Below, piece by piece: positions 31 through 735 of a stretch of DNA of 64,000 bases (the first letter of the stretch is position 1; each line of letters begins with the position of its first letter). The position numbers were made by a program, and so were the translations under genes. The stretch is from an uncultured Candidatus Saccharibacteria bacterium (GTDB lineage: Bacteria; Patescibacteriota; Minisyncoccia; Phycocordibacterales; G965230995), in NCBI GenBank assembly GCA_965230995.1, contig OZ246398.1, positions 309,204 through 373,203 of the forward strand, written 5' to 3'. The notes beneath the pieces are model-generated. The model did not search any database and was not told the origin of the DNA. It saw only the letters and a program-made list of their open reading frames with translations.

Positions 31-735
31 GAAAGGCCAGAAAGCAGCCCGTCTGTGATCTGGGGTCACGTCCGATCTTTTACCCGCTCTCCCAACAAGG
101 GCACCCACTATGATTGCGCGCCTCGTCGCCTAGTGCTCCCCGGCTAAGTGCGCACGGTACGAAACCCCAACCCCTCGCCAAGTTTCTGTGGTGCGAACCA
201 TGTGACTGAAGCGAGGGCTCGTTTTTTATATGACAAATTAATAAACCCTTGCATATTTTTTGAATATGAGTAGTATCTCTATTTGAAACAGTACCGCCAA
301 CCGCAAACACGTGGGAGGCATATGCTCAAGCTCTTGTTTTTTGTGGTTGTTGCCATGATTGCTCCACGAGGAGATTCTCAGCTGGCGTCGTCTCACTGCC
401 TTTCAGTGATCAACGATGTTTGTCCTTGCTGGTGTCTTCCGGGTGCGATCTGGTACCAAACGATGCCCTGCGTCGCTACGCTGGGTACGAGACAAGAACA
501 GTTCGAACAAGAAAGAGAGGAGGAGCCCGAAAGGGTTATCTCATCCGAATCGAGCGGAAGCTCTTCGGAAGAGAACGCGCGTTGCGCATCGTGTAACGCG
601 CGCGGTCCGCCCGAGCATTCATCAGCATTTCTTCGGTAGGGTCCACAAGTCAACCTCGACGAGGATACCTTCCGAAATTCTTCGACCCCCGGGTCTGCGC
701 GAGCAGATCTCGGGGGTTCACCATATATATTGACT
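31..735. other. GC-rich island A upstream of rplJ. It is either a structured RNA or a foreign cassette. A candidate small Cys-rich ORF lies on + at 312..639.
   Basis: By eye about half the bases are G+C, against roughly one third in the flanks. Nested stem-loops with GNRA/UUCG-type loops are present, e.g. ctcttcggaagag at ~562-574, cgcgcg...cgcgcgcg at ~586-612, and ccccgggtctgcgcgagcagatctcggggg at ~687-717. The + ORF has gggagg 3 nt before its ATG and a hydrophobic N-terminus followed by a Cys-rich stretch. No convincing long ORF is present. Confidence 0.3.

Follow-up and report, generated by a model that had tools for sequence, protein, structure and literature searches.

The core of the GC-rich block at the start of the 64,000-nucleotide stretch of DNA analysed here (the window) is, with a probability of roughly 0.6, a small, fast-evolving orphan gene, which would code for an accessory protein from a structured mRNA and have a promoter of its own. 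The sequence-only reading had described positions 31-735 as a hairpin-dense island that could be a structured RNA. We found the block to be composite, with a non-coding spacer at 31-230 (unit 1) followed by a self-contained cassette at 249-716 (unit 2). The GC-rich, hairpin-dense character of the island was borne out, and the proposed lack of a long ORF, the structure of 31-230 and the placement at an L10 leader position were not. A tempting candidate for a large ornate RNA is thereby reassigned to an orphan gene for a small protein, and the leader of L10 can be put in its correct place.

The window is AT-rich (mean GC 35.8%), with 48-57% GC over positions 1-800. GC content of the block itself is 53-57% as compared to 36% for the window, in agreement with its description as GC-rich and compositionally foreign. 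On the Logan contig containing the window (L001, where window position 1 is L001 9121), the GC-rich tract is seen to begin about 600 bp upstream of window position 1, and this upstream part (L001 8440-9110) carries a gene for a protein of 186 aa whose start resembles a signal peptide; the gene has a terminator of its own. The local order is as follows: genes for TPR-repeat proteins, then the gene of a giant LTD-domain (lamin tail domain) protein or its C-terminal remnant, then the 186-aa gene (absent in the related contig L014), unit 1 and unit 2, and finally the promoter and leader of rplJ, rplJ itself (881-1372), rplL (1398-1811) and the 23S rRNA gene. The closest L10 proteins among GTDB species-representative genomes show 43-53% identity and belong to MAGs labelled Kaiserbacteria, Paceibacterota, Patescibacteria-group and Saccharibacteria.

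Some further features of the neighbourhood were observed. Upstream of the window, L001 7277-8230 holds an AT-rich minus-strand gene pair, flanked by the TPR genes on one side and the LTD-domain gene remnant on the other. It encodes a protein of 252 aa and one of 63 aa that resembles HTH_17 excisionases; since the pair is missing at the same point in contig L047, a small mobile insertion is suggested. The last ~55 nt of rplL and its terminator are present twice in near-identical form (1776-1850 and 2018-2090) with an insert of ~170 nt between them, pointing to a minor duplication or insertion. The order of the rRNA genes is unusual and they are not linked (4472-8441 and 18534-21136), 23S and 5S coming first and 16S 10 kb downstream. 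A group I intron lies in the 23S gene at 6489-6772, the 16S gene and tRNA-Ile (21062-21136) are separated by a GC-rich protein gene, and a piece similar to the 5' portion of tRNA-Ile is present near 20957-21000.

A search of positions 1-745 against Rfam 15 gave no family at the gathering score, and at E<=10 it gave only noise of 13-18 bits. Families to which the island showed no match include RNase P, tmRNA, SRP, 6S, group I and II introns, OLE, GOLLD, ROOL, HEARO and raiA, and ARAGORN did not find a tmRNA either; none of the candidates named in the sequence-only reading (RNase P, tmRNA, SRP, introns and large ornate RNAs) is thus matched by the island. The L10 leader (RF00557) was detected on the plus strand at 752-873 with a score of 44.6 bits (gathering score 44), followed by rplJ, and is 83-87% identical in L014, L015 and L047. 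This match falls outside the island, which itself scores nothing against RF00557. The leader is preceded by the promoter of rplJ at 730-758 on the same strand (-35 TTGACT at 730-735, -10 TAATCT at 753-758), which lies outside the gene of the island and whose -35 TTGAC is invariant across four lineages, including L017, which does not carry the island. Therefore, the block at 31-735 lies upstream of the leader and does not replace it, contrary to the earlier suggestion that it sits where an L10 leader would be expected. The leader at 752-873 is an ordinary one, independent of the island.

The features of the cassette all lie on the plus strand. Its putative promoter is at 249-276 (-35 TTGCAT at 249-254, a 16-nt spacer and -10 TAGTAT at 271-276) and is kept in L014 and L015 in the form TTGCGT ... 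TAGTAT/TAATAT. The 5' untranslated region (277-321) contains two conserved motifs, GTACCGCC at 291-298 and GGGAGG at 313-318, which pair with each other in the RNAalifold consensus (alignment A2). The ORF occupies 322-639, with 105 codons and a TAG stop, and residues 4-14 near its N-terminus are hydrophobic. Within it, a long-range helix (332-516; helix 4) joins a U-rich strand at 332-352 to an A/G-rich strand at 496-516 by 18 pairs, 6 of which are changed on both sides. This helix encloses a variable domain, where a 21-nt hairpin insertion specific to the window is found near 391-411 (stem 394-398 with 404-408). Four conserved hairpins follow inside the coding region at 517-613, namely 517-542 (GAAA loop), 543-570 (GGAA loop), 576-602 and 603-613; these helices (10-13) are 91-100% paired, and in helix 11 both sides are changed in 5 of the 11 pairs. 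A terminal hairpin at 686-716, seen in the single-sequence fold, has 13 bp and a GCGA loop, is devoid of a U-tract and lies directly upstream of the rplJ promoter. L014 and L015 have a hairpin of different sequence in the equivalent place, and the hairpin may act as terminator or stabiliser. Most of the hairpins quoted in the sequence-only reading are indeed present, namely cgcgcg..cgcgcg at 576-602 and ccccgggtctgc-gcga-gcagatctcggggg at 686-716, and so are the GNRA-type capping loops (GAAA, GGAA and GCGA). The quoted 'ctcttcggaagag' hairpin did not prove to be a conserved pairing, as the comparative data favour pairing of 543-555 with 560-570.

Homologous islands were found in the same slot in two further metagenomic lineages, making three in all: L014 (the same as L047), whose L10 is 83% identical to that of the window, and L015 (overlapping L002), whose L10 is 75% identical. 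The block had been said to hold no convincing long ORF, with 312..639 as the best candidate. The comparison showed a conserved ORF which is open in all three lineages and starts not at 312 but at an invariant ATG at 322 (322-639, 105 codons, in the window; 686-970, 94 codons, in L014; 206-481, 91 codons, in L015). A GTG upstream of the ORF is out of frame in the window. A protein frame thus covers the region in substance.

Length differences were determined as distances between conserved anchors, independent of alignment (low-penalty pairwise alignments were over-gapped). The pairwise differences were 24, 33 and 9 from the ATG to GCCCTG, 3, -3 and -6 from GCCCTG to GCCCGNAAGGGT, -3, -3 and 0 from GCCCGNAAGGGT to AGCG, 6, 6 and 0 from AGCG to AACGCGCG, and -12, -6 and 6 from AACGCGCG to AAGCA. 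All of the 8 independent non-zero differences inside the ORF were multiples of 3 (P about 1.5e-4). Outside it, the differences from promoter to ATG and from the stop to the rplJ -35 box were mostly not multiples of 3, and those from the L10 leader to the rplJ ATG were not. Invariant columns among the three sequences made up 0.47, 0.49 and 0.32 of codon positions 1, 2 and 3, respectively, and the most conserved 21 nt (592-612, encoding C-N-A-R-G-P-P) showed only two differences, both synonymous and in third positions. The BLOSUM score was highest in the ORF frame, out of three, in 3/3 pairs. The frame-preserving length differences, the third positions as the most variable ones and the conserved ATG indicate that the ORF is translated. 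On the minus strand of L014 and L015, every frame is interrupted somewhere in the region that bears the indels; a minus-strand ORF at 393-824, called by a gene caller on the Logan contig, was rejected, as it is interrupted in both and overlaps the promoter and leader of rplJ.

Certain other features count against coding. The length of the ORF is weak evidence, since the segment is stop-poor in every plus-strand frame (6 stop triplets against 19 expected in the window) and a second plus frame is open for ~95-105 codons in all three lineages. GC at codon positions 1, 2 and 3 is flat in the ORF (0.56, 0.51, 0.54; relatives 0.61/0.53/0.56 and 0.62/0.48/0.56), as compared to 0.53/0.38/0.58 in the 186-aa neighbour and 0.55/0.29/0.30 in other real genes here. 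The divergence at codon positions 1 and 2 (36-43%) is close to that at the four-fold sites of rplJ (41-57%) from the same genomes. The start region of the ORF is GC-rich and paired, and in this it differs from the native genes, for instance rplJ and rplL.

The encoded protein is barely constrained and evolves near-neutrally outside its conserved elements, with 34-44% amino-acid identity among the three lineages and dN/dS of 0.37-0.69. Its conserved elements are a hydrophobic stretch of 10-11 residues, M-P-C (463-471), P-x-R-V and C-x-x-C-N-A-R-G-P-P (583-612), and three of its cysteines are conserved. The hydrophobic N-terminus noted earlier was thus found in all three lineages; the Cys-rich core, on the other hand, turned out to be mostly an insertion specific to the window, and the relatives have a different sequence in place of the acidic Ser-rich tail. 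The h-region has 10-11 residues in all three, and a positive n-region is present in the window only (MLK, as compared to MSN and MLE). Searching 1.84 billion representative sequences with the protein returned 0 matches. It had no match in Pfam, NCBIfam or PDB, and PHROGs gave one non-significant match (E 0.35) for one of the three members. A single-sequence AlphaFold model was unconfident (pLDDT 46), with a helix only at residues 2-13. The low identity, the lack of homologues and this model likewise count against coding.

In the plus strand, positions 280-735 fold with -187.8 kcal/mol (z -6.35) as compared to z -0.9 for the minus strand, an asymmetry which points to G-U pairing in a plus-strand RNA. 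When 64 segments of 456 nt each were scanned over the 64 kb, the island had the lowest z (-6.9) against a background of -1.0 ± 1.9, with rRNA and spacer segments at -4.4 to -6.5. The segment at 23881-24336 also folds with an extreme z (-6.55), like the island. For the homologous islands, z was -4.51 (plus) and -3.74 (minus) in L014, and -4.18 (plus) and -1.52 (minus) in L015. RNAalifold, run on a MAFFT alignment built without structural information, gave a consensus of 112 pairs, of which 27 were compensated by changes on both sides, with the caveat that the structure was derived from the same three sequences, the only ones, and that the alignment is of poor quality towards its 3' end. Shuffled controls gave 11.7 ± 2.7 compensated pairs, none of 500 reaching 27, and slid partners gave 2-10. 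Upon column shuffling, the alignment z was -7.6 on the plus strand and -5.4 on the minus strand. In the hairpin at 543-570, pairing is kept by four to five double changes as the peptide goes from SSESSGSSSEE to PTGFSESCPVI, which again counts against coding.

The same measures were applied to coding controls. The neighbouring 186-aa gene, which is clearly coding because of its GC1/2/3 of 0.53/0.38/0.58, had z -3.0 alone and an alignment z of -4.9. The alignment z of rplJ was -2.2, and small genes in the same slot of related contigs gave -3.1 (L019) and -5.9 (L017). Conserved mRNA folding thus seems to be a property of the GC-rich cassette genes. Since a coding gene folds comparably, structure alone is not evidence for a non-coding RNA. 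The idea that the block could be a structured RNA therefore stands as far as a strand-specific fold of 280-735 is concerned, one conserved in two relatives; it does not stand for a known RNA family, nor for a structured 31-230.

Relatives were taken by their L10 from a protein collection, and their contigs were then fetched. Those with L10 of 62-66% identity (L017, L018-L022, L023, L081 and L082) do not carry a homologous island, nor do those of 43-53% identity, which comprise 11 GTDB species (L003-L013). Absence was judged by blastn, motif search or a covariance model (R1) built on the 517-613 region, and from gene maps for L081, whose upstream flank is 128 nt, and L082, where the upstream gene lies too close to rplJ for an island to fit. 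In these relatives the slot is filled by other small GC-rich genes; homology of the ORF with the small proteins in this slot of L017, L018 and L023 was not found. R1 detected the three known copies only, with no further one elsewhere in the window or among 28 related loci. When metagenomes were scanned with the 21-mer of highest conservation (TGNAACGCGCGNGGTCCGCCC), 48 loci were obtained, of which only L047, with the same sequence as L014, was real, the remaining ones being chance matches in contigs of 49-72% GC. Viral contigs likewise gave chance matches only, with R1, which represents a part of the island, at <=11.6 bits there, and BLAST against phage and plasmid collections gave no match. 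A GC-rich patch upstream of rplJ in L003 turned out to be an unrelated minus-strand gene. In L018 (2709-2966), as also in L019-L022, a GIY-YIG endonuclease gene is located between the L10 leader and rplJ.

The 16S rRNA (18534-20022; 3' end near 20005-20022) ends in ...GUGAUGUAAUUCAAGG and does not possess the anti-Shine-Dalgarno CCUCC; CACCTCCTT is absent throughout the window. The conserved GGGAGG at 313-318 can therefore not serve as a classical Shine-Dalgarno (SD) sequence. It was also observed that rplJ has neither rplK nor rplA upstream. A Parcubacteria subgroup lacking both uL1 and the anti-SD sequence has been described (Tsurumaki et al. 2022, PMC9297842), and the 16S tail and the lack of rplK and rplA before rplJ both fit this subgroup. 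Further GC-rich (49-55%) cassettes are present in the window at 15230-15870, 20240-20900 and 25400-25880, with ORFs of 206, 165 and 105 aa, each of which (near 15308, 20330 and 25503) has a sigma-70-like promoter, an SD-like motif, an ORF and an intrinsic terminator. Their genes have no Pfam match, and the 165-aa product, judged by eye, looks like a secreted lytic transglycosylase. An SD-like motif <=20 nt from the ATG was found in 4/4 GC-rich genes in the window as compared to 2/59 AT-rich ORFs, and the 186-aa gene is the only GC-rich cassette gene without a clear one. The small gene, the 186-aa gene and at least three other cassettes are GC-rich within an AT-rich genome that is without an anti-SD sequence. 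Native genes are without SD motifs, and both genes tested (the small gene and the 186-aa gene) have folded mRNAs. If this contrast between GC-rich, SD-like and native genes is general, it would mark a separate expression class of accessory genes in these reduced symbionts. The island could be one of a class of tightly folding GC-rich cassettes with an SD-like motif in a genome without anti-SD.

Positions 31-230 are a separate non-coding spacer or putative small transcript. A promoter-like site may precede unit 1 at 1-28 on the plus strand (-35 TTGAAT from one base before the window, a 17-nt spacer and -10 TATCCT at 23-28); L014 has a similar arrangement (TTGA-N17-TAnnnT), and a consensus promoter scan made no call at this site. 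Unit 1 itself is a C-rich plus-strand segment ending in a stem and T-run, and the terminator-like T-run reported earlier was located as T6 at 222-227 after a stem of 172-178 with 211-217. The fold of this segment (25-232 folded) was not significant, with z -1.4 (plus) and -0.3 (minus), and z was -1.3 for the counterpart in L014. A block of 79 nt in unit 1 is 73% identical to L014, with 68-144 as the common core, and as the two differ by 1-nt indels, unit 1 is not coding. In place of unit 1, L002/L015 hold an unrelated, well-folded segment (z -4.5). Unit 1 was also considered as a pseudogene remnant, for which blastx against neighbouring proteins found no similarity, and as an antisense partner of unit 2, for which the duplex energy was equal to that of shuffles.

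We propose that positions 249-716 constitute a self-contained accessory gene cassette in a genome of the Parcubacteria (candidate phyla radiation, CPR). The sigma-70-like promoter at 249-276 would drive an mRNA of ~440 nt, whose translation, starting at ATG 322 and stopping at TAG 639, would give a protein of ~10 kDa, and the transcript would end in the stable 3' hairpin at 686-716. The cassette occupies a variable slot between the gene of a giant LTD-domain surface protein (or its remnant) and the rplJ operon. Because this slot is taken in relatives by other small GC-rich genes whose products look secreted, the protein is most likely an exported or membrane-anchored accessory protein that binds metal or forms disulfides. 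Selection may keep the mRNA GC-rich and folded, and the fold probably sets its stability or limits translation initiation.

In the island's coding sequence, helices and reading frame are both retained and the peptide changes at a nearly neutral rate; as only three lineages could be compared, functions at the RNA level have to be considered beside the gene. A dual-function RNA, in which the ~440-nt transcript acts mainly by its fold as a regulator or scaffold and ribosomes read an open frame whose peptide is nearly free to change, is a possibility we rate well below the protein gene. The frame-preserving indels coexisting with compensated helices inside the ORF speak for it, as do the equally high GC of codon positions 1, 2 and 3, kept up in an AT-rich genome although the sequence turns over near-neutrally, and the hairpin at 543-570 that keeps its pairing as the peptide is replaced. 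However, comparable folding of the 186-aa gene means that folding may be general to GC-rich cassettes, no target or partner was found (the duplex of unit 1 with unit 2 being no better than shuffles), Rfam holds no relative, and the structure comes from the same three sequences. In the same spirit, we regard only as a tentative proposal that the transcript is primarily a new structured RNA of ~440 nt, confined to a small Parcubacteria clade, which must be translated, with helices, GC and frame under selection and the peptide hardly so.

That the transcript is purely a non-coding structured RNA of a new family, its ORF a by-product of GC-rich, stop-poor composition, appears improbable to us. Such an RNA would agree with a z of -6.4 to -6.9, which is the minimum for the window and similar to rRNA and spacer segments, with the strand asymmetry of the fold, with the depletion of stops in all plus frames and the open second frame, with flat GC1/2/3 and with the lack of protein homologues among 1.84 billion representatives; the U-rich helix strand would account for the 'hydrophobic N-terminus', and the organism has no anti-SD sequence. 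It would leave unexplained why 8/8 length differences in the ORF are divisible by 3, most of those outside not being so, why third positions are variable in excess and why the most conserved block has synonymous differences only; nor did we find a further copy in the window or the 28 related loci, or an Rfam match. Foreign composition, the lack of homologues, near-neutral substitution rates and slot content that varies between lineages could also be those of a decaying, no longer functional remnant of a horizontally acquired GC-rich gene. We consider this very improbable, as frame, ATG, promoter, GC and helices are all kept in three lineages whose neutral sites differ at 41-57%.

The preferred reading, a translated accessory gene with a folded mRNA, may be compared with several known systems. 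Its position just upstream of rplJ is reminiscent of the L10 leader (RF00557), but the true leader is separate at 752-873 and has its own conserved promoter. Like the type I toxin mRNAs (hok/sok), the island would give a folded mRNA of ~400-450 nt with the start in or near helices and a hydrophobic beginning of the ORF. It differs from them in an ORF of 91-105 codons as compared to <60, in a hydrophobic stretch of only 10-11 residues, in matching no family and in that a weak consensus scan of 1-2500 calls no minus-strand promoter. With the dual-function RNAs RNAIII (delta-haemolysin) and SgrS (SgrT) it shares a multi-hairpin RNA with a translated ORF; however, its ORF spans ~70% of the transcript, no target-pairing region was found, and there is no sequence or Rfam relationship. 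Autonomous 'moron'-like cassettes resemble the island in having their own promoter and 3' hairpin, in GC content (54% in a 36% genome) and in occupying a lineage-variable slot, and three more cassettes of the same build are present in the window. In contrast to these, the island lies outside any recognisable prophage, shows no phage or plasmid similarity and has been inherited at the same position in three lineages.
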